From assembly GCA_948470605.1 (NCBI GenBank), contig CAOKPI010000002.1, forward strand, positions 19,015 through 83,014: a stretch of DNA of 64,000 nt, read 5' to 3'. Below are positions 3,041 to 56,310 of the stretch, piece after piece. The notes beneath the pieces were generated by a model. The model was not told the DNA's origin. It saw nothing but the letters and a program-made list of their open reading frames with translations, and made no database searches. The DNA comes from an uncultured Clostridium sp. GTDB lineage: Bacteria > Bacillota > Clostridia > TANB77 > CAG-508. The position numbers were made by a program, and so were the translations under genes. How positions within the stretch are numbered: the first letter of the stretch is position 1; the number at the start of each line of letters is the position of its first letter.

Positions 3041-3072
3041 TGAGACAATTAAGAGCTGTCCCTCTTGTCTCA
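3041..3072. repeat. solo TGAGACAA..TTGTCTCA hairpin of the CTGTCCC orientation; its last three nt are the SPFH stop codon on the minus strand
   Basis: The sequence is tgagacaattaagagctgtccctcttgtctca followed by TTTTTT. It belongs to the same family as the elements at 28981-29100 and 38295-38416. Confidence 0.6.
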
Positions 3073-18578: not shown

Positions 18579-18652
18579 GATTCATCTCCTAAAAATTGAT
18601 AGTAGTATTATACCTAGATTTCTGATAATAGTCAATGTCAATTAACAGGTTT

Positions 18653-19043
18653 GTGACAAGAGGGGCGCCCTTTTTTGTCACACAAAATAATTCAAAAAAG
18701 GTTATTATGATTTTTTATTTGCAACTCCCAACATCACACAGTCTGTAAATTTTTAACAGACTGTAGTTCGTCGGTCCCCACGAATTGTTGCTTCATAAAA
18801 AATATAATAACCTTTGTGAGAAATAAAGGAAATGTGACAAGAGGGGAGTCCTTTTTTGTCACATAAAATAATTCAAAAAAGGTTATTATGATTTTTTATT
18901 TGCAACTCCCAACATCACACAGTCTGTAAATTTTTAACAGACTGTAGTTCGTTGGTCCCCGCGAATTGTTGCTTCATAAAAAATATAATAACCTTTGTGA
19001 GAAATAAAAGAAATGTGACAAAAAAGGGCGCCCCTCTTGTCAC
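18653..19043. repeat. tandem array of 2.15 copies of a 181-bp unit; each unit begins with a GTGACAA..GGGCGCCC..TTGTCAC hairpin and contains the ~110-bp core repeat
   Basis: Units start at 18653, 18834 and 19015, with about 95% identity between them. The terminal hairpin is inverted. The core matches the repeats at 25786-26007 (reverse complement) and 28104-28222. Confidence 0.8.
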
Positions 19044-24769: not shown

Positions 24770-24840
24770 GTAAATTCCTCCTTAAAATTTTATATATGAT
24801 ATGTAAAAAATATATATCTTTATTGTCTTTTTGTCAATGG

Positions 24841-25100
24841 ATTACAATTTTAAGTTTCGACTTTTTGCAAGTGAGGGTGGTCATATATCATTTTTGCAAC
24901 ACTGCGTAAGCGACCAGCTAACGCATACTGCCACTGTAATAAGCAAGCTTTAACAGTGGACAGCAAAACGAGCGAAACGAGTGCGATTGGAGCAACGTAC
25001 AGACTAGTATATTTTATTTTGGAAGTTGCGACACACAAAGTGTAAAAAAATGATATATGACCACCCTCACTTGCAAAAAGTCGAAACTTGAAATTACAAT
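24841..25100. mobile_element. 260-bp non-coding element with 55-bp near-perfect terminal inverted repeats and a GC-rich ~150-bp core, abutting the nth stop codon
   Basis: 24841-24895 is the reverse complement of 25046-25100 with 2-3 mismatches. The core GC content is well above the local background. No credible ORF is present: the 115-aa ORF at 24850-25197 is a palindrome artefact. Confidence 0.6.
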
Positions 25101-25735
25101 TATTTTTTAGCTTGATAAAACTTGCAAAGTTGATTGACAACACAAGTATCACATTTTGGCTTTCGTGCGCTACAAGTATTTCTTCCATGCCATACAAAAA
25201 TATGATTGATATCTTTTAAATATTCTTTTGGGAAAATTTTTAATAAATCCTGTTCTACCTTTTCAGGTTGTTTTTCTTTGGATAAACCAATTAGATTTGC
25301 TATTCTTTTTGCGTGCGTATCTACTGCAATTCCTTCTGCTATCCCAAACACTTCCAATAAAATAACATTGGCACTTTTTCTTCCAACACCAGCTAAACTG
25401 GTTAATTCATCCATCGTATGAGGAACTTGACCATCAAAATTTTCTAGAACTTGTTTGGCACATAATTTGATGTTTTTCGCTTTGTTTTTATAAAATCCAC
25501 AGGGATGGATGAGTTGCTCTAATTCATGAATGTCAATGTCTGCAAAGTCTTGAATGGTTTGACAACGTGAGAAGAGAGCAGGTGTTGTTAGGTTGACTCT
25601 TTCATCTGTACATTGGGCAGAAAGCATGACGGCAACGACTAATTCGAAAGGCGTTTTGAAATCTAGACTACAAGTGGCATCTGGGTATCTTTCTTTTAAT
25701 TGCTTAATTAAAGTAATGGCATCTTGTTTTTTCAT
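25100..25735 (-). CDS. nth: endonuclease III
   Basis: It has the HhH-GPD motif LTSLAGVGRKSANVIL and the 4Fe-4S cluster C-x6-C-x2-C-x5-C at the C-terminus (CSARKPKCDTCVVNQLC). Confidence 0.9.
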   Translation of the reverse strand: MKKQDAITLIKQLKERYPDATCSLDFKTPFELVVAVMLSAQCTDERVNLTTPALFSRCQTIQDFADIDIHELEQLIHPCGFYKNKAKNIKLCAKQVLENFDGQVPHTMDELTSLAGVGRKSANVILLEVFGIAEGIAVDTHAKRIANLIGLSKEKQPEKVEQDLLKIFPKEYLKDINHIFVWHGRNTCSARKPKCDTCVVNQLCKFYQAKK

Positions 25736-25785
25736 AACATCATCTCCTCGTATGTATTTTACAAAATAAAAGAGAATTCTTCAAT

Positions 25786-26007
25786 GTCCCCACTGGTTCC
25801 GGGTTTAAATGGGGATGCAATTGTAATTATATTTTAAATTAAAAGTTTATTCTATTTTTTATACAGTAACAATTCGGGGGGACCAGCAAGCGTACAGTCT
25901 GTTAAAGATTTACAGACTGTGCGATGCTGGGAGTTACAAATAAAAACTAGAATAAACTTTTTTATAAAAATTAATGCATCCCATTTAAACCCGGAACCAG
26001 TGGGGAC
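25786..26007. mobile_element. 222-bp MITE-like element with nested inverted repeats: an outer ~32-bp repeat GTCCCCACTGGTTCCGGGTTTAAATGGGGATG and an inner ~15-bp repeat, surrounding the conserved ~110-bp core in reverse orientation
   Basis: 25786-25820 is the reverse complement of 25973-26007. The core at 25861-25975 matches the reverse complement of 18706-18810. There is no ORF. Confidence 0.75.
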
Positions 26008-26087
26008 ATTTTCTAATTCTACATAAAGAGGAACAAATAAAGAGAAAAAATAATATAATATACAAAAACAAGGGAGGTAATAATCGT

Positions 26088-28071: not shown

Positions 28072-28103
28072 CTAATTAATAATTTTATAAAAGTTTATTA
28101 TAT

Positions 28104-28222
28104 TTTTATTTGTAACTCCCAACTGCATAACAGACTGTAAACAAAATTTCTAAAAATTTTGTACAGTCTATAATTTGTCGGTCCCCCCGAATTGTTACTA
28201 CATAAAAATATAATAAATTTTA
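28104..28222 (+). repeat. solo copy of the ~110-bp core repeat (variant with an extended central hairpin)
   Basis: The sequence is TTTATTTGTAACTCCCAAC..ACAGACTGT..ACAGTCT..GTCGGTCCCCCCGAATTGTTACTACATAAAAATATAATAA. Confidence 0.7.
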
Positions 28223-28970: not shown

Positions 28971-28980
28971 AAAGAAAAAT

Positions 28981-29100
28981 GAGACAAGAGGGACAGATTT
29001 CTTTTGTCTCATAAATTTGGATAGAAAAATGTCGAATAAAGAAAATGATAAAAAACGACAAAAAATGTGAGACAAAAGAAACCTGTCCCTATTGTCTCAA
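28981..29100. repeat. 120-bp MITE-like element made of two 32-nt TGAGACAA..GGGACAG../..CTGTCCC..TTGTCTCA hairpins in mutually inverted orientation around a conserved 56-nt spacer, directly upstream of clpX
   Basis: Hairpin A lies at 28981-29012 and hairpin B at 29069-29100. The copy at 38295-38416 has about 90% similarity. Confidence 0.75.
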
Positions 29101-32713: not shown

Positions 32714-32746
32714 ATGTGGGACATTATCTACGTCCCCATGTCCCAA
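32714..32746. repeat. REP-like hairpin TGGGACAT-TATCTACGTCCCC-ATGTCCCA between the response regulator and the kinase
   Basis: It contains the reverse complement of GGGGACGTAGATA, the same core as the elements at 51877-51904 and 53414-53448. Confidence 0.65.
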
Positions 32747-34957: not shown

Positions 34958-35638
34958 ATGAAAAAATTAATTGCCATTATCATAATTTTAGTAATCATTT
35001 TTGTGGGTATGGTTGTATACAAAAACGTTGCTATCAATACTAGCAATAACATTAGTATACAAGAAATCAGCCAAATAGAAACTTATATAACCAAAATTTA
35101 TATGTGGAAAGAAATAACAGGACAAGCACTACCAAACTTTGAGGATATTAATCAAGCAGAAGATGTATGGATATGGGAAGTAGTCAAAAAAAACTTAGAA
35201 GATTATGAATTTTTTTACGAAGAGATACAAGAAAAAGCAAAAGACCTATTTGGAGAAAGATTGACAAAGGAATTTCCAAAAGAAGGAACCGAATATATTA
35301 TCTATGATGAAAAAAACGATAAATATTATGCCGTGGGAATGGGATTAGACCAATTAGAGGATTTGTTTTTATTAAATGAAATTCAAAAAACACCAAATGG
35401 ATACGAGGTGGAAATCATTGAGTATTTAGAAGACTATTCACAGACATTAAATGAAGAAGATGATTTTGTTATTATTAGAAATATAAAGGAAGAAGAAATT
35501 GGGAGAGTTAATAGTACAGAGGAAGAAAAAGTAAAAGAAATGGTTAAGAATCATATAGATAAATTGAGTAAAAAAAAGATAGTTTTAAAATTAGAGAATG
35601 AAAAGTTACAGGTAGAGAAAGTTTATGAAATAGAATGA
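34958..35638 (+). CDS. hypothetical membrane-anchored protein
   Basis: 226-aa ORF with an N-terminal TM helix. The remainder is acidic. Confidence 0.45.
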   Translation: MKKLIAIIIILVIIFVGMVVYKNVAINTSNNISIQEISQIETYITKIYMWKEITGQALPNFEDINQAEDVWIWEVVKKNLEDYEFFYEEIQEKAKDLFGERLTKEFPKEGTEYIIYDEKNDKYYAVGMGLDQLEDLFLLNEIQKTPNGYEVEIIEYLEDYSQTLNEEDDFVIIRNIKEEEIGRVNSTEEEKVKEMVKNHIDKLSKKKIVLKLENEKLQVEKVYEIE

Positions 35639-35661
35639 TTTTGGGGACGGAGGAAAAAATC

Positions 35662-36573
35662 ATGATGGGAGATGGAATGTTACAAGGATTAGAAAAATGC
35701 AAAATATGCCCACATGAATGTCAAGTCAATCGAAATAAGGAGAAGGTGGGAAGATGTAGAGCAACAGACAAAGTACGAATTGCTTTATATAGTACACATG
35801 ATTTTGAGGAACCATGTATTAGTGGAGAAAAAGGCTCTGGGACAGTCTTTTTTTCAAATTGCAATTTGAATTGTATTTATTGTCAAAATTATGAAATCAG
35901 TCAATTAGGTAAAGGAAAAGATATTACCATAGAAGAATTAGCTGATATTTTTTTAAAGCAACAAGAAAATGGAGTAGAAAATATTAATTTGGTAACACCT
36001 ACTAGTTATGTGTTGCAAATCATAGAAGCAATAAAAATAGCAAAACGAAAAGGATTGATTATCCCTATTGTATACAATACAAATGCTTACGAGAAAGTCG
36101 AAACACTAAAATTATTAGAAGGATATATCGATATTTATTTACCGGATTTAAAATATGCAGAAGACAGTTTAGGAGTGGAATATTCTAACATAAATGATTA
36201 TTTTGAGATAGCGACAGAAGCAATTCAAGAAATGATTCGACAAGTGGGAATACCAAAATTGAATGAAAAGGGTATCATGCAAAAAGGCGTTATGGTTAGG
36301 CATTTAGTTCTGCCCAATTATCTTGAAAACAGTAAAAAAGTTTTAAAATGGATAAAAGAAGATTTGCCAAGTAAAATATATGTTAGCATTATGGCTCAAT
36401 ATTTTCCAACTTATCAGGCTAAAAAAGTGAAAAAGCTAAATCGAAAATTATCAAAACAGGAATGGCAAGAAATACAAGAGTACATAGAAGAATTAGGAAT
36501 TGATAATGGTTATGTGCAAGAACTGGGAGAACATGAGGAGGAATATGTGCCAAAATGGGAATTTGATAAGTAA
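35662..36573 (+). CDS. radical SAM protein, PflX-like (pyruvate formate-lyase activating enzyme homologue family)
   Basis: An N-terminal Cys cluster is present at CKICPHEC..GRC. The radical SAM motif is CNLNCIYCQN. Confidence 0.65.
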   Translation: MMGDGMLQGLEKCKICPHECQVNRNKEKVGRCRATDKVRIALYSTHDFEEPCISGEKGSGTVFFSNCNLNCIYCQNYEISQLGKGKDITIEELADIFLKQQENGVENINLVTPTSYVLQIIEAIKIAKRKGLIIPIVYNTNAYEKVETLKLLEGYIDIYLPDLKYAEDSLGVEYSNINDYFEIATEAIQEMIRQVGIPKLNEKGIMQKGVMVRHLVLPNYLENSKKVLKWIKEDLPSKIYVSIMAQYFPTYQAKKVKKLNRKLSKQEWQEIQEYIEELGIDNGYVQELGEHEEEYVPKWEFDK

Positions 36574-38294: not shown

Positions 38295-38416
38295 ATGAGA
38301 CAATGGGGACAGGTTTGAATTGTCTCATAAATTAAGTAGAAAAATGTCAAAATAAGAAGAAGACACAAAAAGTGACAAAAAAAGTGAGACAATTGAAACC
38401 TGTCCCTATTGTCTCA
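38295..38416. repeat. second full copy of the 120-bp double-hairpin TGAGACAA element, between thyA and folA
   Basis: Hairpin A lies at 38295-38327 and hairpin B at 38385-38416. The spacer is about 85% identical to the copy at 28981-29100. Confidence 0.75.
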
Positions 38417-48312: not shown

Positions 48313-51300
48313 ATGTCAAAATTTGTGCATTTACATATCCACAGTGAATTCAGTTTACTAGATGGAGCCAATCGAATCAAAGACTTACCAGTACGAGCCA
48401 AAGAATTAGGAATGGAGGCCATAGCCATCACTGACCATGGAGCGATGTATGGAGCCATTGATTTTTATAAAGCTTGTAAAAAAGAAGGCATCAAGCCAAT
48501 CATTGGATGTGAGGTCTATGTAGCACCAAGAAGCCGTTTTGATAAAGAGCCAAATATCGATAATCGATACAATCACTTAATCTTATTGGCAAAAAATCAG
48601 CAAGGATATCAAAATTTGAGTAAACTAGTCTCCATTGGATTTGTAGATGGTTATTATTATAAACCTCGTATCGACATAGAGGTATTAGAAAAATACCACG
48701 AAGGATTAATATGCTTAAGTGCTTGTTTAGCAGGTTCTGTCAATCAATCCTTATTAAAGGGAGACAATGAAAAGGCAGAAGAAATTGCACTTTGGCATAA
48801 AAAAGTATTTGGAGAAGATTATTATATTGAAATTCAAAACAATGGGATAAAAGAACAAGTTTTGGCTAACCAAAAATTAATTGCTTTAGCTAGAAAATTA
48901 GAGATTCCACTAGTAGCCACCAATGATGCCCATTATCTAAAAAGGGAAGATGCCTATAATCACGAAGTTTTACTTTGTATTCAAACAGGTAAAAGAATGA
49001 GTGATATGGACCGAATGCGTTTTGAAACAGATGAATTATATGTGAAATCACCAGAAGAAATGATAGAGTATTTCAAATCCTTTCCAGATGCGATTGAGAA
49101 TACCGTTAAAATTGCAGAAAAATGTAATGTGGAATTTGAATTTGGTCATACCATTTTGCCAAATTACGATGTGCCAGAAGAATTTCCAACTCATTATGAT
49201 TATTTTAAAAAATTATGTGATGATGGTATTAAAAATAGATATGGGGAAAATCCTTCTCAAGAAATATTAGATAGGATGGAATATGAACTTGGTGTCATTC
49301 AAAAGATGGGATATGTCGATTATTTCCTAATTGTATGGGACTTTATTCATTATGCCAAAACACATGGGATACCAGTAGGACCAGGAAGAGGTTCAGGAGC
49401 AGGTTCCATTATTGCCTATGCTATTGAAATTACAGATATTGACCCTATGAAATATGGTCTTCTTTTTGAAAGATTTTTAAATCCAGAAAGAATTAGTATG
49501 CCTGACTTTGACGTAGATTTTTGTTATGAACATAGACAAGATGTAATTGACTACGTATCTGAAAAATATGGACATGACCATGTGTCTCAGATTATCACAT
49601 TTGGAACGATGGCAGCTAAAATGGTTATCCGAGATGTAGCAAGGGTGCTAGATGTAGCTTATGCAGAAGCAGATAGTTTGGCAAAAATGATACCAAATGA
49701 ATTGCATATTACCATTCAAAAGGCATTAGAACAAAATAAAGAACTAAAAGAACGATATGAAACAGATGAAACGGTAAAAAAAGTATTAGATATTGCGATG
49801 GCATTAGAAGGAATGCCAAGACAGGCATCCACACACGCTTGCGGAGTGGTCATCACCAAAGAACCAGTTGATACTTATGTGCCATTGTATGTTCGAGATG
49901 ACCAAATTTCAACCCAATACATCATGACAACTTTAGAGGAATTGGGCTTATTAAAAATGGACTTTTTAGGATTAAGAACCTTGACTGTTATTCAAGATAC
50001 CATTGATTTAGTGAAAGAAAATAGGGGAATTGATGTCGAATTTGACAAAGAAATGGCAGACCCAAAGGTATATAAACTATGGCAAGAGGGAAAATCCTGT
50101 GGCATATTCCAATTTGAGTCACAAGGTATGACAAATTTCATGAAGGAACTAAAACCAGACTGTTTAGAAGACTTGATAGCAGGAGTATCTCTATACAGAC
50201 CAGGGCCAATGGACCAAATTCCAAGATATGTAAAAGGAAAACTAAATCCGGGACACAATGAATATACCCATCCACGATTAGAGCCAATCCTAAATGTAAC
50301 TTATGGTTGTATGGTTTATCAAGAACAAGTTATGCAGATTGTACGTGATTTAGCTGGCTATTCACTAGGAAGAGCTGACTTAGTAAGAAGAGCCATGGGA
50401 AAGAAAAAGCTAGACGTCATGGCAAAAGAAAGAGAAGTATTTATCCATGGACAAGTAGACGACGAAGGCAATGTAGTTGTGCCAGGATGTGTTAGAAATG
50501 GAATTGACGAAGCATCCGCCAATAAAATATTTGATGAAATGGCAGAATTTGCGAAATATGCCTTCAATAAATCACATGCAGCTTGTTATGCTGTCATTGC
50601 TTACCGAACTGCTTACTTAAAAGCTTATTACCCAGCAGAATTCATGGCAGCTACCCTAAATAGCTTTTTAGGAAACTTAGACAAAATACCACAATATATT
50701 GATGAATGCAAATTACTTGGCATCGAAATATTGAAACCAGAAATCAACAAAAGTGATGCTAAATTTACCACTGAATATGATGGCGAGTTTGGCGAGTCAG
50801 ACCCAAAGTTGCCAATAAGCAAAAAACAATCAACCACAGAATTATTATCACAGTCAAAAGCTAAGATTCGTTTTGGTTTAGGAAGTATTAAAAATGTGGG
50901 AACTGTGCCAGTTAATAGCGTTGTCAAAGAAAGAAGAGAAAATGGACCTTATAAGAGTTTCACCGATTTTTGTGAGAGAATAGCAGATGAAGCGGTTAAT
51001 AAAAAATGTATCGAAAGTTTAATAAAAGCAGGGGCTTTTGACGAATTTGAACAGACAAGAAGTACTTTATTAGCTTCTTTTGAAGGAATTATCGATTCGA
51101 TTCAAAGTAGTAAGAAAAGAGGTTTAGCGGGACAAGTTTCCATGTTTGATTTAGGCTCTGAACAAGAAAAAGAAGAAATGAATGAGGTTAAATATAAGTT
51201 TTATGAACAAGAAGAAATGTCAAATAAAGAGTTGTTGTCCATTGAAAAAGAAATGCTGGGAATTTATATTTCTGGTCACCCATTGGAAAAATTGAGAAGT

Positions 51301-51894
51301 CAAATTGATGCACAAGCAACTATTAATACTATGCAATTACGAGAGTTAGATGAGCAGATGAGTTCACAAATGTTAATGGAAGAAGGAGTAAGAAATGAGA
51401 AACCAAAATTTGTGGATGGGCAAAAAATAAAATATATAGGAATTATTACTTCGATTAAAAAGAAATATACAAAAAATAATAAGATTATGGCTTTTGTTAC
51501 GATAGAAGATTTATATGGTACAGCTGAAATCATTGTATTTGAGAATGCTTACTTAACAGCAGGTAAGAGTTTAGTGGAAGAAAATATTGTTGTGGTCCAT
51601 GGTCGTTTGAGCATTCGAGAAGATGATACGACTACTATTATTGCTAATGAATTAAAAGATTTTGGCAATCAAAAACAGAAGATTTTTACCCTTGATATTA
51701 CAAATGCTAATGACGAACAAAAGGAAAAGTTAAGAGGGGCTTTGCGATATTTTAATGGGGATAGAAATAATATGAATGTGCAAATTAGGATAGAAGAAGA
51801 ACTAAAACCATGTGGACAGATTTATTGGACAGAGCAGATTCAAGGAGTGTTTGAAGATATTTTGGGAAAAGAAAATGTGGACATGGGGACGTAG
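48313..51894 (+). CDS. dnaE: DNA polymerase III alpha subunit (DnaE-type)
   Basis: The PHP domain is HLHIHSEFSLLDGA. The polymerase core motifs are GPGRGSGAGS and PDFDVDF. An OB-fold C-terminus is present. It is 1193 aa. The last 5 codons and the stop lie inside a REP-like hairpin. Confidence 0.95.
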   Translation: MSKFVHLHIHSEFSLLDGANRIKDLPVRAKELGMEAIAITDHGAMYGAIDFYKACKKEGIKPIIGCEVYVAPRSRFDKEPNIDNRYNHLILLAKNQQGYQNLSKLVSIGFVDGYYYKPRIDIEVLEKYHEGLICLSACLAGSVNQSLLKGDNEKAEEIALWHKKVFGEDYYIEIQNNGIKEQVLANQKLIALARKLEIPLVATNDAHYLKREDAYNHEVLLCIQTGKRMSDMDRMRFETDELYVKSPEEMIEYFKSFPDAIENTVKIAEKCNVEFEFGHTILPNYDVPEEFPTHYDYFKKLCDDGIKNRYGENPSQEILDRMEYELGVIQKMGYVDYFLIVWDFIHYAKTHGIPVGPGRGSGAGSIIAYAIEITDIDPMKYGLLFERFLNPERISMPDFDVDFCYEHRQDVIDYVSEKYGHDHVSQIITFGTMAAKMVIRDVARVLDVAYAEADSLAKMIPNELHITIQKALEQNKELKERYETDETVKKVLDIAMALEGMPRQASTHACGVVITKEPVDTYVPLYVRDDQISTQYIMTTLEELGLLKMDFLGLRTLTVIQDTIDLVKENRGIDVEFDKEMADPKVYKLWQEGKSCGIFQFESQGMTNFMKELKPDCLEDLIAGVSLYRPGPMDQIPRYVKGKLNPGHNEYTHPRLEPILNVTYGCMVYQEQVMQIVRDLAGYSLGRADLVRRAMGKKKLDVMAKEREVFIHGQVDDEGNVVVPGCVRNGIDEASANKIFDEMAEFAKYAFNKSHAACYAVIAYRTAYLKAYYPAEFMAATLNSFLGNLDKIPQYIDECKLLGIEILKPEINKSDAKFTTEYDGEFGESDPKLPISKKQSTTELLSQSKAKIRFGLGSIKNVGTVPVNSVVKERRENGPYKSFTDFCERIADEAVNKKCIESLIKAGAFDEFEQTRSTLLASFEGIIDSIQSSKKRGLAGQVSMFDLGSEQEKEEMNEVKYKFYEQEEMSNKELLSIEKEMLGIYISGHPLEKLRSQIDAQATINTMQLRELDEQMSSQMLMEEGVRNEKPKFVDGQKIKYIGIITSIKKKYTKNNKIMAFVTIEDLYGTAEIIVFENAYLTAGKSLVEENIVVVHGRLSIREDDTTTIIANELKDFGNQKQKIFTLDITNANDEQKEKLRGALRYFNGDRNNMNVQIRIEEELKPCGQIYWTEQIQGVFEDILGKENVDMGT

Positions 51895-51904
51895 ATGATG
51901 TCCC
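51877..51904. repeat. REP-like hairpin GTGGACATGGGGACGTAGATGATGTCCC overlapping the dnaE stop
   Basis: It carries the GGGGACGTAGAT core in plus orientation and is inverted relative to the copy at 53414-53448. Confidence 0.65.
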
Positions 51905-52011
51905 TATTTGTGCCTTTTTCTATAAAAAATTATGAGAAATAGTGTTGAGGTGAAATTTTTTGTTAATGAAATAAGTAATAAATGATAAGAATTTTGAAAG
52001 AGGAAACGATT

Positions 52012-52350
52012 ATGGAAAAAATTGAAATGTTAGAAGGAATTTTGAATAGTTATCCATATCCTATTGTTTTTGTAGATAATGATTATAGGATTAGATTTAT
52101 GAATAAAAATGCACAATACCATTATCGCAAAAAGGGAAAAAATCTAATAGGAAAGAGCATATTTGATTGTCATAATGAAAAATCTATTGGAAAAATAAAA
52201 AACACTTATGAAGAAATTAAAAAAACTGAAAAAGATGTATTTATATTTGTAAATTCTAGAAATCAAAGAGTTTATATGCAAGGTGTCAAAAATCAAAAAG
52301 GCGAATGGATAGGATTTATAGAAAGATTTGAATTAAACTTGCAAATGTAA
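52012..52350 (+). CDS. small PAS-domain protein
   Basis: The sequence YPIVFVDNDYRIRFMNKNAQ..GKSIFDCH is a PAS-fold signature. It is 113 aa. Confidence 0.5.
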   Translation: MEKIEMLEGILNSYPYPIVFVDNDYRIRFMNKNAQYHYRKKGKNLIGKSIFDCHNEKSIGKIKNTYEEIKKTEKDVFIFVNSRNQRVYMQGVKNQKGEWIGFIERFELNLQM

Positions 52351-52364
52351 ATAAAATAAGATTG

Positions 52365-52425
52365 CTACACTGCAATGGTTTCATTTATTTGTGAGAAAGT
52401 AAAATGAAACCATTGTAGTGTAGTA
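52365..52425 (+). terminator. very long hairpin (22-bp stem, 1 mismatch) after the PAS gene; a terminator or structured RNA
   Basis: ctacactgcaatggtttcattt..aaatgaaaccattgtagtgtag. Confidence 0.5.
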
Positions 52426-52574
52426 ATTTCTATCACTTATTATACTATGCTATTAAACAAAGCTTTTCAAAATATTTAAACATAGGATATTTAAAAATTC
52501 ACAAAAAAGCGTGCAATTTTATGGGAAATGTGATACCATAATTATACGAAAATCATTTTAATAATTTTATCAAG

Positions 52575-53414
52575 TTGTTTTATTCAAATAATTTTAATCA
52601 TGAACTAAATCCAATCATTAAAAAACAAAAAGAGGAGGTGAATGCCATACCGAGAGTAGCAAGAAAAAATCATATAAGTCAATATTTTCATATTGTTGTT
52701 AAGGGAATAAATGCAGAATATATATTTAGAAAAAAAGAGTATATGGAAAAATATAAGAATTTATTGAAAAAGAATGCAAAGAATCATCAAATCAATATAC
52801 TTGCTTACTGTATTATGAATAATCATGCCCATATATTATTATATACAAAAGAAAAAACTGAAATGGCTAGTTTTATGCAAAAAACCAATACTAGCTATGC
52901 TAAATATTATAATTTTTATGAAGATAGAGAGGGATATGTTTTTAAAGGACGATATTATACACAAAATATTTTATCATTAAAACAATTATATAATTGTTTG
53001 GTTTATATCCATAAAAATCCAATAAAGGCAAATTTAGTAACCAAAATGGAAGATTATCCGTTTTCAAGTTATCACGAATTCTTTAAAGATAAAGAGATAA
53101 TAGATGAACAAAGTATAAAATTGTTAGAATTAAAATTAGATAATTATTATAATGATTTAATAAAAATACATAGAATGGAAGATATTACAGATATATTTGA
53201 TATAAAAGAATACATAGATGCCCAACAAATCTTAAGAGAATATGAAAATAATTACAAGCAACCAATTAAAAAATTGAAGGAACAAAACGAAATTTTAGAA
53301 AAGATAATTGTTGATTTAAATGAAAAGGCAGGAATGCCAATTAGAAAGATAGCAGAAAAGATAAGTGTTAATAAAAACAAAGTGAATAAAATTTTAAAAG
53401 AAAAAAGAAAATAG
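52575..53414 (+). CDS. Y1 HUH transposase-family protein (IS200/RAYT-like REP-associated tyrosine transposase) with a C-terminal HTH-like extension
   Basis: The HUH motif is NNHAHILL. The catalytic Tyr context is FKGRYYTQNI. The N-terminal FHIVVKG is typical of the Y1_Tnp fold. The gene is flanked by inverted GGGGACGTA[G/C]AT hairpins. Confidence 0.65.
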   Translation: MFYSNNFNHELNPIIKKQKEEVNAIPRVARKNHISQYFHIVVKGINAEYIFRKKEYMEKYKNLLKKNAKNHQINILAYCIMNNHAHILLYTKEKTEMASFMQKTNTSYAKYYNFYEDREGYVFKGRYYTQNILSLKQLYNCLVYIHKNPIKANLVTKMEDYPFSSYHEFFKDKEIIDEQSIKLLELKLDNYYNDLIKIHRMEDITDIFDIKEYIDAQQILREYENNYKQPIKKLKEQNEILEKIIVDLNEKAGMPIRKIAEKISVNKNKVNKILKEKRK

Positions 53415-53448
53415 GGGACAAAATGTACGTCCCCATGTCCTCCATGTC
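53414..53448. repeat. REP-like hairpin GGGGACAAAATGTACGTCCCC plus ATGTCC repeats between the transposase stop and the mgtA stop
   Basis: The reverse-complement core is GGGGACGTACAT, inverted relative to the copy at 51877-51904. Confidence 0.65.
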
Positions 53449-56109
53449 CTAAATCCATTCACCATATTTTTTCATATAAATCTTTTTAGCAAAAATGGCC
53501 ACAAAGCAATAAAGAAGAGTAATTGCAAAAATCAAGAAAATATATTTTGTAGCAATTGGTACAAATCCAAGTAAATTTCCTAAACCAGTAAAAGGAACCA
53601 AAATTCCAATAATAATTAAAGAAATAGAGGAAATATAAACAGCTTTATGGGCATTACTTTGTACAAATGGCAATTTAGCGGTACGAATGATATGCATGCC
53701 TACTAAATTGGAGGTGATGCTATAACTAAACCAAATGGTTTGGAAAGTAGCGACATCTCTTACTTGGAAAATGAACCAAAGAGAGGCAAATACAAGCATA
53801 TCAAAGGCAGAGCTAAGTGGTCCCATAAAAAACATAAATTCTTTTAGACTCTTGATGGAAAATGTTTTTGGCTTCTGTAAAGATTCTTTGTCTACATGGT
53901 CAAAAGGTAAAGTCAATTGTCCAAAATCATATAATAAACCTTCTACTAATAATTGAATAGGTGTTTCTGGTAAAAAAGGTAGCAAAGCACTAGCAATGAC
54001 GACAGAAACGACTTCTCCAAAGTTGAAACTAGTTGCTAATTTAATATATTTCATAAGATTCACATAGGTACGTCTTCCTTCTGTGACACCATCTAGTAAT
54101 ACATTTAAGTCTTTTTCTAATAAGATAATATCAGCAGCTTCTTTGGCAATATCAACTGCGGTATCAACAGAAATTCCAACATCGGAATTGGTAAGGGAAG
54201 GGCTATCATTAATGCCATCTCCCATATAGCCTACGACATTTCCGGATTCTCTTAAAAGCCTTACAATTCTAGCTTTTTGAATTGGAGAAAGTTTGGCGAA
54301 TATATTGGTTTTCTTCAATAATCGTAAAACAGCAACATCGGTTAATTTATCCAGTTTACTTCCTAATACAATATTTTTAGAGTTAATACCGACTTTATTA
54401 CAAATACATCTTGTAACTTCTGCATTATCTCCTGTTAAAACCATGACACGAATGCCAGCACGATTTAATTTTTCGATGGACTCTTTGGCACTTTCCTTTG
54501 GAGGGTCTAAAAATCCAATAAATCCTAATAATATCATATTTTTTTCGTCAGCCACTGAAAAGTTTTCGATGTTAGTAATATCATTTTTTTGACATACAGC
54601 TACGACTCTTAGTCCATCTTCATTTAATTTCTTGCTAATTTGTCTGATATTTTCTTTGATTTCTTTCGTGATAGGAGAAACTTTTCCTTTATAATCAATC
54701 ATGGTACAAATGCTTAGAATTTCTTCCACAGCACCTTTGGTGATTAATTGCTTTTTTGTACCATCACTTACGACAACAGATAAACGCCTACGAGAAAAGT
54801 CAAAAGGAATTTCATCTATTTTTTTATATTTTTCTGAAATCTCTTTCATGTTATTTTCAAAAGCTCTTTGGATAACAGCTTCATCAATATTTCCTTTTAA
54901 TCCAGTTTGAAAGTAGGAATTTAAAAAGGCATGTTTTAAAACTCTAGTATCTTCTTCTCCTTGAACATCTAGATATTTTTCTAATACAATTTTATCCTCT
55001 GTTAAGGTTCCTGTTTTATCGGTACATAAGATGTTCATAGCACCAAAATTCTGAATGGAATCTAGCTTTTTCACAATGGTTTTTTTCTTAGACATTCGGA
55101 TAGCACCTTTGGACAAGCTAGAGGACAAAATAACAGGTAATAGGAGAGGGGTAATCCCAATGGCGATTGCCACAGCAAAAGTAAATGCTGTAATGATATC
55201 ATGTTTCCAAGCGTTTAGTAAAAAGACGATAGGAATCATGATTAACATGAAACGAATTAACAATCTACTAATGCTTTCAATTCCTTTTTGGAAAGCGGTT
55301 TTAGGTTTTCCAAGAGTTAGGGTGTGAGCTACTTTACCAAAGTAAGTAGAGTCAGCTGTTTTGATGACAATTCCTTTGGCACTTCCTGAAATAACATTAG
55401 TTCCCATGAAACAAATGGTGTCTAAGTCTGCAATACTATCTAAATTTTCTATCGATGTTTCGGTTTCCACAAGCTTTTTAACACTATCGGATTCACCAGT
55501 TAAAGAGGATTGTCCAACATATAAATCTTTTGCCTCAATTACTCTTAAGTCAGCTGGAATCATACTACCAGCAGAAAGAAATACGACATCTCCTAAGGTG
55601 ATTTCACGAATGGGAATTTCAATTTTTTCTCCATTACGAAGCACAGTGGTTGTGGTTGCTACCAGCTGTTTTAATTCTTCTGCTGCTTTATTAGAACGAT
55701 ATTCCTCGAAAAAGTCTAATAAAGTGCTTGCTGTGACTAAGATAGCAATTACAATAATATTGGCATAACTTGGCGTGGGTGGCAAATAAATATCGGTATA
55801 AATTAAAATAGCTACAATCCCAAGTAAAATACAATTAAAAGGGGTAAATAGGCTTTCTAAAAAATAGTGATACCACTTTTTGGGTTTGGCTTGCTTAATT
55901 TCATTCAATCCTAAATTACGAAGCCTTTCTTCTGCTTCACTAGAGGAAAGTCCTTCTTCTTTTACTTTGTATTTTTTAATAAAATCTTCTTTGGGCAATG
56001 TGGCTTCTTGCCCATATAATTTAGTAACATTTACTTCGTCTTTGGTTGTATTGTTTGACAAATTAATCATCTCCATTTTTCTTAGTTCTAGGAAAGTGCA
56101 TTTATGCAC
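53449..56109 (-). CDS. mgtA: magnesium-translocating P-type ATPase
   Basis: The phosphorylation site is CTDKTGTLT. Other motifs are MLTGD and GDGINDSPSL. Ten TM segments are present. The start is GTG at 56109 or ATG at 56076. Confidence 0.9.
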   Translation of the reverse strand: MHKCTFLELRKMEMINLSNNTTKDEVNVTKLYGQEATLPKEDFIKKYKVKEEGLSSSEAEERLRNLGLNEIKQAKPKKWYHYFLESLFTPFNCILLGIVAILIYTDIYLPPTPSYANIIVIAILVTASTLLDFFEEYRSNKAAEELKQLVATTTTVLRNGEKIEIPIREITLGDVVFLSAGSMIPADLRVIEAKDLYVGQSSLTGESDSVKKLVETETSIENLDSIADLDTICFMGTNVISGSAKGIVIKTADSTYFGKVAHTLTLGKPKTAFQKGIESISRLLIRFMLIMIPIVFLLNAWKHDIITAFTFAVAIAIGITPLLLPVILSSSLSKGAIRMSKKKTIVKKLDSIQNFGAMNILCTDKTGTLTEDKIVLEKYLDVQGEEDTRVLKHAFLNSYFQTGLKGNIDEAVIQRAFENNMKEISEKYKKIDEIPFDFSRRRLSVVVSDGTKKQLITKGAVEEILSICTMIDYKGKVSPITKEIKENIRQISKKLNEDGLRVVAVCQKNDITNIENFSVADEKNMILLGFIGFLDPPKESAKESIEKLNRAGIRVMVLTGDNAEVTRCICNKVGINSKNIVLGSKLDKLTDVAVLRLLKKTNIFAKLSPIQKARIVRLLRESGNVVGYMGDGINDSPSLTNSDVGISVDTAVDIAKEAADIILLEKDLNVLLDGVTEGRRTYVNLMKYIKLATSFNFGEVVSVVIASALLPFLPETPIQLLVEGLLYDFGQLTLPFDHVDKESLQKPKTFSIKSLKEFMFFMGPLSSAFDMLVFASLWFIFQVRDVATFQTIWFSYSITSNLVGMHIIRTAKLPFVQSNAHKAVYISSISLIIIGILVPFTGLGNLLGFVPIATKYIFLIFAITLLYCFVAIFAKKIYMKKYGEWI

Positions 56110-56252
56110 TTGACATAGAAATAAATTATGCGAAGGTTAGATTTTCTTACCATTTTATGGCTTAGAAAATCTTAGCTCCGTTTTTTATTTATAAAGATTA
56201 TACCACTATTTTCAAAAGATTACACAAAAATATAGAAAAAAATATAAAAATA

Positions 56253-56284
56253 TGAGACAATGGGGACAGGTATTAGTTGTCTCA
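56253..56284. repeat. solo TGAGACAATGGGGACAGG..TTGTCTCA hairpin (A orientation) 27 nt upstream of the aminopeptidase start
   Basis: It is near-identical to hairpin A at 38295-38327. Confidence 0.7.
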
Positions 56285-56310
56285 TAAATTGAGAAGAAAA
56301 GAGAGGTATT

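Follow-up and report, generated by a model that had tools for sequence, protein, structure and literature searches.

The window analysed here, a stretch of 64,000 nucleotides from an uncultured Clostridium sp. (contig CAOKPI010000002.1, positions 19,015 to 83,014 of the forward strand; positions below are those of the window), carries a single copy of a gene for a Y1 HUH nuclease with a C-terminal helix-turn-helix (HTH) domain, bracketed by an inverted pair of hairpins which resemble repetitive extragenic palindromic (REP) sequences. The locus probably represents a TIRtron/REPtron-type arrangement, in which a chromosomal single-copy enzyme of the TIRYT clade (class 2 TnpA-Y1) stands between its inverted cognate hairpins. 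Across the enzyme family, the flanking hairpins change with the lineage of the gene by paired substitutions in the stem, and units of the window's own repeat are dispersed between the genes of sister genomes. A preliminary description of this DNA had likened the locus to the REP-associated tyrosine transposase (RAYT) systems of Proteobacteria. The organisation it recognised stands, and recurs across the family, but the enzyme is not a canonical RAYT and belongs, as explained below, to a class that has already been described.

The repeat pair and its unit

The Y1 gene lies between copy A on the forward strand and copy C on the reverse strand, the inverted pair already proposed in the preliminary description, and the pair is kept in the orthologous loci of two related species (L024 and L103). 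The 12-mer GGGGACGTASAT occurs at three sites of the window, 51885-51896 (+), 53423-53434 (-) and 32726-32737 (-), against 0.03 in dinucleotide-preserving shuffles. A longer unit, GGACATGGGGACGTA.AT..TGTCCC, is common to the copies, and its layout, (G)GGACAT-GGGGACGTAGATA-ATGTCC(C), is that of a 13-nt loop enclosed by a 7-bp stem. As stated in the preliminary description, copy A codes for the 3' end of dnaE (open reading frame 48313-51894), giving the final five codons, ...D M G T followed by the TAG stop. The further copy reported at 32714-32746 is also confirmed, as unit B (Table 1), while two others have to be reassigned: the one at 63976-63996 is the outer arm of a composite palindrome seen in locus L086, and the weak one at 35643-35650 falls within a full hairpin (35635-35663) that belongs to another family.

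Copy C abuts the stop of the Y1 gene, overlaps that of the P-type ATPase gene convergent with it and occupies the full 37-bp gap between the two. It is terminator-like for the latter, minus-strand gene (7-bp stem with 5 G-C pairs, T-rich tail) and is the only such site in the Y1 region. Isolated single units are weak DNA hairpins (-5 to -6 kcal/mol, z about -2), and the earlier suggestion that the repeats double as terminators fits copy C only. A promoter scan gave a result no better than shuffles.

A covarying hairpin at the flanks of the family

At 53 metagenome loci holding distant homologues (32-51% protein identity), the 450 bp upstream of the Y1 gene were compared with the 400 bp downstream of it, in a search free of any motif, to determine the best inverted repeat. 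A repeat reaching the threshold score of at least 14 was present at 40 of these loci and, at 38 of the 53, its arm contained GGGAC, reading towards the gene, whereas the control intervals of the same loci yielded one repeat of this score in 133 and the motif in 0 of 133. The stems are nearly all lineage-specific, with 37 distinct 7-mers among 38 hairpin sequences, and their mean length is 7.5 bp with their own arms versus 3.7 bp when the arms are swapped between lineages. When an 8-pair helix from 30 lineages was aligned without gaps, 86% of the cells were paired, compared with 47% in shuffles (0 of 500 reaching the observed value) and 37-50% in a control with slid partners. Moreover, changes on both sides were found at 8 of the 8 stem pairs, and G-U pairs were few; the hairpin itself is under selection.

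What is conserved is (N)GGGGAC(G/A), on the 5' side of the loop, later loop positions being variable. The invariance of GGGAC in the 30-lineage alignment is by construction, since GGGAC was the alignment anchor; independent support for the motif comes from the motif-free search, owing to its presence at 38 of 53 loci and in none of the 133 controls. No GT[AG]G foot was found 5' of the stem across the family, and the GTAG in the loop of the window's copies is not conserved. The repeat is thus a lineage-specific stem of 7-8 bp with a loop of about 13 nt starting with GGGGAC(G/A).

The Y1 HUH protein

The protein matches Pfam Y1_Tnp (E 1.2e-9) and, weakly, HTH_24 at its C-terminus. Its best NCBIfam model is REP_Tyr_transpos (NF047646), with 70.4 bits for a cut-off of 80, and the IS200 model NF033573 gives 21 bits for a cut-off of 55. 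In an alignment of 44 homologues the HUH motif NNHAHIL is invariant (N59-H60-x-H62, with HUH as H60-A-H62, numbered from 52647), which, together with the Pfam match, upholds the motif NHAHIL named in the preliminary description. The catalytic-tyrosine motif given there, GRYYTQ, does not hold, its tyrosines varying across the alignment, whereas YIHKNP is invariant (Y120-I-H-x-N-P, in the context LVYIHKNPIKA). Among solved structures, the family profile matches only 4ER8, the E. coli TnpA-REP, where NNHAHIL aligns with the HMH motif and YIHKNP pairs with YIYINP. Counted along the printed alignment, the first Y of YIYINP is residue 115, and Tyr115 is what we take to be the catalytic tyrosine of 4ER8; Y120 of YIHKNP is the predicted catalytic tyrosine of the Clostridial protein.

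The AlphaFold model (predicted local distance difference test score, pLDDT, of 91) contains helices at residues 192-254, and its top Foldseek match is again 4ER8 (E 3.4e-8, template modelling score 0.76 on the target), the transposases of IS608 and ISDra2 coming next. The HTH-like tail noticed earlier is supported by these helices and by weak matches to HTH_24, HTH_11 and HTH_3 in 5-9 of the 44 family members; Bac_DnaA_C had no match in the C-terminal domain of the 44. By profile, the family comprises about 1,600 clusters at 50% identity (E <= 1e-30).

The open reading frame of 279 amino acids, called from TTG 52575, is probably over-extended. About 190 homologues have some 255 amino acids and begin with MPRxAR at the position of ATA 52647, which sits 8 nt past a GGAGG, and there is an in-frame GTG at 52638. 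At the position of this ATA, which is ideally spaced from the GGAGG, L024 has ATA and L103 has ATT, and ATG stands there in distant homologues; the in-frame GTG inside the Shine-Dalgarno sequence is kept in all three orthologues (window 52634-52649). The start is therefore non-canonical and probably weak, with ATA 52647 or GTG 52638 as the likely codon.

Inheritance of the locus

The gene is resident, that is, single-copy, vertically inherited and under purifying selection. The identical protein was found only in the context dnaE - PAS - Y1 - ATPase, on eight metagenome contigs (L001-L008). The orthologues of L024, from the metagenome-assembled genome (MAG) CALXCE01, and of L103 show 83% and 76% protein identity, respectively; in both loci the Y1 gene adjoins the same P-type ATPase gene, both repeats are kept and the PAS gene is absent. 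In L024 the end of dnaE is also present upstream of Y1, and the repeat pair encloses the Y1 gene alone. The ratio of non-synonymous to synonymous substitution (dN/dS) among the three orthologues is 0.15-0.19, with dS 0.5-0.7. Distant homologues (about 45% identity) are likewise single and placed amid housekeeping genes, as in U32 peptidase - Y1 - rimP/nusA and NFACT - Y1 - pgi.

The preliminary description placed a PAS gene and a hairpin between the first REP and the Y1 gene, which is correct, although the hairpin stem has 26 bp and not 22. Since the orthologues L024 and L103 are without them, both belong to a species-specific insertion, about 575 bp long, which separates REP A from the Y1 promoter. 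In a pattern search, the 26-bp-stem hairpin turned up in contigs L001-L008, which represent the same locus, and nowhere else among the fetched loci. The possibility that this hairpin (52361-52427) marks an IS200-type end was rejected, as it came with the PAS insertion and is absent in the orthologues; IS200-type ends are absent. A difference of four amino acids in the length of dnaE in L001 was considered as a REP polymorphism and turned out to be a differing start call.

Dispersal of the repeat in sister genomes

A scan for GGACATGGGGACGTASAT with one genome per species was carried out; among the matches listed, hits concentrate in four MAGs of uncultured Clostridium/Clostridia, CAOKVW01, CAOJZE01, CAOKEO01 and CALXCE01, the first of which is 93-95% identical to the window across 8 kb. 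The repeats are thus present well beyond the window, and the census of units and orientations suggested in the preliminary description gave at least 124 units in the fetched stretches of these four MAGs (81, 24, 9 and 10 per MAG, all lower bounds). Neighbouring units less than 400 bp apart are arranged in 49 of 49 pairs as + then -, with their 5' ends outward, which is the geometry found around the Y1 gene. The total lengths of these doublets cluster at about 66, 88-99, 232-239 and 283 bp. They fold as long hairpins of about -30 kcal/mol, and about 20% of them are nested in a further palindrome.

None of the 78 elements lies inside a long open reading frame, and many fill a whole intergenic gap. 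The claim that the repeats lie at gene boundaries and often supply stop codons is thereby borne out; in a recurrent 16-nt overlap, the unit gives the gene a DMGT* tail, dnaE included. Flanking genes are co-directional in 52 cases, convergent in 5 and divergent in 7, close to what Firmicutes gene order alone would produce. No target-site duplication was detected at 44 doublets, direct repeats of at least 3 nt occurring at 6.8% of the junctions against a null of 5.9%.

Matches to the 18-mer in Acidobacteria, Planctomycetes, Actinobacteria and other non-Clostridial records were treated as unrelated, because the 3' arm is absent and several lie within longer, probably coding, conserved sequence. 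In the Acidobacteria MAGs L012, L019, L027 and L067, for example, the 18-mer forms part of a longer common sequence, GGACATGGGGACGTAGATGTCCTCGAAGATGCGGCG, which is probably coding and has no 3' arm. A distant Y1 homologue is also present in L067, 6 kb from the 18-mer match.

An asymmetric conserved core of about 110 nt, GCAACACCGCGTAAGCGACC...GCGATTGGAGCAACC-N18-GGTTGCGACACACAAGGTGT, was observed in the interior of some doublets, always centred in a long palindrome. Its sites are window 24899-25071, L021 7488-7770, L052 1784-2067 and 16 doublets of 232-239 bp in MAG loci. In the MAGs the core lies inside REP doublets through an inner inverted repeat, AACTTAATGTGTTATCTATTATTTTT; its copy in the window is enclosed by an unrelated palindrome of 29 nt, and L021 is without the core at that same site. 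Doublets of 97-103 bp have the same outer spacer as the core-bearing ones, without the core. The core has no match in Rfam and looks like a separate small element or RNA gene living in the centres of hairpins.

Turnover at orthologous sites

Orthologous sites with flanks 84-98% identical were compared, and the elements were found to differ in state. Singlets correspond to doublets in window B/L021, L091/L034, L079/L045, L051/L065 and L043/L063, and short doublets to long ones in L018/L010 and L055/L066. In the sister genome CAOKVW01 (L021), the site of unit B, a singlet in the window, holds a 283-bp doublet. Moreover, the singlet at L057 6811-6835 (CAOKVW01) corresponds in L070 3733-4492 (CAOJZE01) to an inverted pair enclosing a segment of about 700 bp with one open reading frame. 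Each of these indels is bounded by the 7-nt arm repeat GGGACAT/ATGTCCC, which fits equally well replication slippage or an enzyme acting on two hairpins at corresponding positions. Excision catalysed by the Y1 protein was considered as the cause of the singlets and is inseparable from slippage between the 7-nt arms.

The only candidate for a truly empty orthologous site, L068 versus L028 and L094, is too diverged for the insertion point to be placed. Hairpins of different families were also found to share intergenic sites. A GGGACAT doublet at L068 2927-3015 stands where L094 3784-3815 has a singlet of GAGACAA-GGGGACAGG (a second hairpin family, described below), and the GGGACAT doublet of L094 2319-2414 corresponds to a GGGTGTTTTT-CGGGACGGGG hairpin at L068 1522-1563. 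Such differing stem families in one gap across species suggest hot spots or replacement.

Relation to known systems

Di Nocera et al. 2013 (PMC3733652) describe RAYT-like genes flanked by lengthy terminal inverted repeats (TIRs), named TIRYT/TIRtron, many of whose TIRs carry GGGGWSAS and some of whose families are moderately abundant and dimer-forming. Quentin et al. 2018 (PMC6006769) equate TIRYTs with TnpA-Y1 subclass 2.1, report C-terminal HTH-type domains in them and report REP-like secondary structures beside subclass 2.1 genes as absent; Bertels et al. 2017 found Group 1 RAYTs in Clostridia with only a modest repeat association. When the family profile was run on 13 sequences from Additional file 5 of Di Nocera et al. 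2013, eight of the nine TIRYTs scored 66-118 bits and the ninth 50, while the four RAYTs scored 21-40 bits. The enzyme is therefore not the uncharacterised variant suggested in the preliminary description, since TIRYTs, or subclass 2.1, have already been described and the profile favours them over RAYTs.

The likeness to TIRYTs extends to the N-terminal MPRxAR, to AYCLMxNHxH, to Y---NP (the published signature of class 2, TnpA-REP-like proteins) and to a WSS/SSY motif, and both groups of proteins are longer than RAYTs and bear a C-terminal extension of DNA-binding type. In both, the gene is flanked by inverted repeats with a G-rich motif and the repeat families are moderately abundant and often form dimers. 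The motif of the present repeat, GGGGACGT, matches the published GGGGWSAS at 6 of 8 positions, and those of related families, GGGGACAG and GGGGACAC, match it fully. Nevertheless, the C-terminal domain is here a generic HTH (HTH_24, HTH_11, HTH_3) and not Bac_DnaA_C, BLAST similarity to published TIRYTs ends at about residue 170-210, and the flanking 'TIR' is a covarying stem-loop with its conserved motif in the loop. The hosts are here uncultured gut-type Clostridia. One published TIRYT, dau 2153, presumably comes from Desulforudis audaxviator, also of the class Clostridia, going by our own reading of the abbreviation.

With the REP/RAYT systems and REPINs of Proteobacteria (Bertels and Rainey 2011, PMC3116915) the system shares the nearest solved fold (4ER8), a single-copy, vertically inherited gene between inverted cognate hairpins, dispersed extragenic copies which are mostly inverted doublets folding as long hairpins, and the presence of several repeat families in one genome. 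It differs in the extra HTH domain, in the absence of a conserved 5' GT[AG]G foot and in doublet interiors that can reach about 180 nt, with a separate conserved core. Judged by its score under the NF047646 cut-off and by the missing GTAG foot, the enzyme would not be placed among canonical RAYTs. The TIRYT/TIRtron class itself, into which the Clostridial system falls, is already known. New in detail are the stem-loop 'TIR' with its motif in the loop, the strict geometry of the doublets and the abundance of copies in sister genomes; in the searchable literature, no description of a Clostridial TIRYT branch or of its hairpins was found.

Proposed mechanism and alternatives

The link between gene and repeats, the selection acting on the hairpin, the geometry of the doublets, the lack of target-site duplication and the turnover at orthologous sites are observed, whereas mobilisation by the enzyme is inferred. 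In the TIRtron-type reading, the repeat unit would fold where DNA is single-stranded, for instance at a replication fork, and the enzyme would bind it as TnpA-REP binds the REP hairpin. Tyr120 and the HUH metal site would then cut and rejoin the strand, presumably by the single-strand chemistry, free of target-site duplication, of IS200/IS605 TnpA, with which the enzyme has the catalytic fold in common. Acting in trans, the enzyme would excise non-coding, REPIN-like inverted doublets, 5' ends outward, and insert them into intergenic DNA, and most singlets would be decay products of doublets, arising through deletions whose limits are the 7-nt stem arms. In the three orthologues, expression would be held low by the non-ATG start (ATA or ATT). 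Effects on host genes, such as new stops (the DMGT* tails), the terminator-like hairpin of the ATPase gene or elements adjoining ribosome-binding sites, would be secondary, and any regulatory role of the repeats is putative.

Several observations weigh against this reading. The protein scores under the NCBIfam RAYT cut-off (70.4 versus 80 bits), and its action on the hairpins, both cutting and joining, is deduced by homology with TnpA-REP. With 3-4 units in 64 kb, the cognate GGGACAT family is rare in the genome from which the window comes. The GAGACAA family is commoner in the window, where no Y1 gene matching it is visible, and the rule of one enzyme for one repeat is therefore unproven. Among the four repeat-rich MAGs, a Y1 orthologue was seen in CALXCE01 (L024), the other three (CAOKVW01, CAOJZE01 and CAOKEO01) being represented by the matches listed only. 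In addition, slippage between the 7-nt arm repeats explains the singlet/doublet indels equally well, and a similar indel of arm plus centre distinguishes the window from L021 at a palindrome which is not a REP (24899-25071).

Three other explanations were weighed. The gene and its two hairpins might form an autonomous insertion sequence of IS200/IS605 type moving as a unit, as the Y1_Tnp domain, the structured ends on both sides and the presence of the IS608 and ISDra2 transposases among the structural neighbours would suggest. However, the gene is not multi-copy but single, in one conserved neighbourhood in three species at dS 0.5-0.7; its distant homologues are also single, among housekeeping genes; the ends are inverted copies of one unit rather than separate left-end and right-end hairpins of a single strand; the tyrosine motif is the class-2 Y---NP and not the class-1 Y----Q; no tnpB gene is present; the IS200 model reaches 21 of the 55 bits needed; and the repeats spread without the gene. 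This explanation is largely refuted and retains a minimal probability. It is also very unlikely that the doublets are ordinary miniature inverted-repeat transposable elements (MITEs) of an unseen DDE transposase recognising terminal inverted repeats of 25-27 nt, with their position around the Y1 gene being incidental. As in MITEs, the doublets have terminal inverted repeats and conserved interiors and fall into discrete size classes, but target-site duplication is absent (6.8% versus the null of 5.9%), the flanking inverted repeat changes with the Y1 lineage and is not seen in controls, and the repeat arm is itself a covarying hairpin, which a DDE end does not need.

Somewhat more room, although it is still improbable, has to be left for the hairpins serving chiefly in host regulation, as RNA or DNA elements (terminators, mRNA stabilisers or protein-binding sites), with the Y1-HTH protein as a domesticated binder or nuclease in a housekeeping or autoregulatory role and copy number set by slippage and recombination. 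Copy C is terminator-like, elements sit tight against gene ends and within operons, the protein keeps its place and is under purifying selection, and short direct repeats border the indels, as would be expected from slippage. Nevertheless, slippage cannot seed new sites, and near-identical units and 85%-identical interiors recur across dozens of unrelated loci; units taken singly form weak hairpins and lack T tails; the 49 of 49 orientation points to a defined mobile unit; and the rarity of G-U pairs in the covarying stem speaks for a structure at the DNA level, which can be read on both strands. The TIRtron-type arrangement is thus the reading preferred here. A bolder extension of it, offered tentatively and on balance doubtful, is that the hairpins form an addressable code, in which the invariant GGGGAC(R) loop would serve catalysis and the freely evolving stem would give each Y1-HTH lineage its private repeats. 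The family of about 1,600 clusters, the several hairpin families in one genome and the differing families at the same orthologous sites leave this idea open. Repeat pairs bracket genes, namely the Y1 gene, the PAS gene here and the open reading frame of about 700 bp in L070, and they perhaps move the genes they bracket.

Other repeats and features of the window

A generic scan for hairpins with a GGGAC loop gave 11 in the window against 1.8 in shuffles, among which there were three of GGGACAT type, six with a TGAGACAA stem and a GGGACAG loop (the GAGACAA family) and one of ATGATTTT type. The loop of the latter, GGGGACGGAGGAA, gives a GGAGG 8 nt ahead of an ATG at about 35662 (window 35635-35665), and the downstream gene may in fact begin at this ATG; many loops of the hairpin family read GGGGACGGAG, also Shine-Dalgarno-like. 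In L086 the composite palindrome cut off by the end of the window is complete, its outer arm, GGGACAATTGGGGACGTTTCC, bracketing a GGGACAT-type doublet. The coordinates of the features are collected in Table 1.

A repeat of about 125 nt with an internal hairpin, ACAGTCTGT..ACAGACTGT, was also observed at 18700-18815, 18880-18996, 25840-25960 and 28090-28215, as well as in many MAG loci; it corresponds to no tRNA and to no Rfam family, and its copy at 25790-26010 is nested in a palindrome of about 35 nt (ccactggttccgggtttaaatggggatgca and its reverse complement). Hairpins of the form TGTGACAA-gaggggcgccctt-TTTGTCACA alternate with these repeats (18650-18680, 18833-18863 and 19014-19030) and have the geometry of REP units, with GGGGCG or GGGGAG in the loop in place of GGGGAC. 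The whole window had no Rfam match at gathering thresholds, and only long-hairpin artefacts appeared at E up to 1 over 24800-26050; a tRNA search of the window found none.

Table 1. Coordinates of the Y1 gene, the repeat units and other features of the window
Feature	Position	Strand	Remarks
Y1 HUH nuclease with C-terminal HTH, TIRYT-like	52647..53414	+	Pfam, NCBIfam, alignment, model
REP unit A, GGACATGGGGACGTAGATGATGTCCC	51879..51904	+	Upstream half of inverted pair; same layout in L024 and L103
REP unit B, TGGGACATGGGGACGTAGATAATGTCCCA	32717..32745	-	Singlet between response-regulator gene and ribosome-binding site of kinase gene
REP unit C, GGACATGGGGACGTACATTTTGTCCCC	53414..53440 (reads 53440 to 53414)	-	Downstream half of inverted pair
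Partial duplicate, GGACATGGA, 9 nt	53441..53449 (reads 53449 to 53441)	-	Precedes unit C
GAGACAA-family inverted doublet, 121 bp	28979..29099	28979-29012 +, 29068-29099 -	Fills whole intergenic gap
GAGACAA-family inverted doublet, 122 bp	38295..38416	38295-38328 +, 38385-38416 -	Fills whole intergenic gap
GAGACAA-family singlet	3041..3072	-	Hairpin scan
GAGACAA-family singlet	56251..56286	+	Hairpin scan
Third-family hairpin, ATGATTTT-GGGGACGGAGGAA-AAAATCAT	35635..35663	+	Gene junction; same type flanks Y1 homologue in L133
Outer arm of composite palindrome, GGGACAATTGGGGACGTTTCCTTTT	63976..64000	+	Cut off by end of window
PAS-domain gene, 122 amino acids	51982..52350	+	Pfam PAS_10, E 3.6e-10; alternative start ATG 52012
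Perfect hairpin, 26-bp stem	52361..52427	+	3' of PAS gene; -21.8 kcal/mol as DNA, z -9.4

Significance

To our knowledge, work on REP/RAYT systems has been confined almost entirely to Proteobacteria. A large Clostridial branch of TIRYTs here shows a clean rule, an invariant loop motif on a covarying stem, with doublets whose 5' ends point outward, and its hairpins are concrete substrates for a first biochemical test of a TIRYT. Some of the repeat content of uncultured gut Clostridia is also accounted for by this system, changed stop codons and intergenic regions included. If the addressable code were true, the enzymes of subclass 2.1/TIRYT would be true REP-type mobilisers, against the published lack of REP-like structures beside their genes, and the family would offer a tractable system for engineering hairpin specificity.

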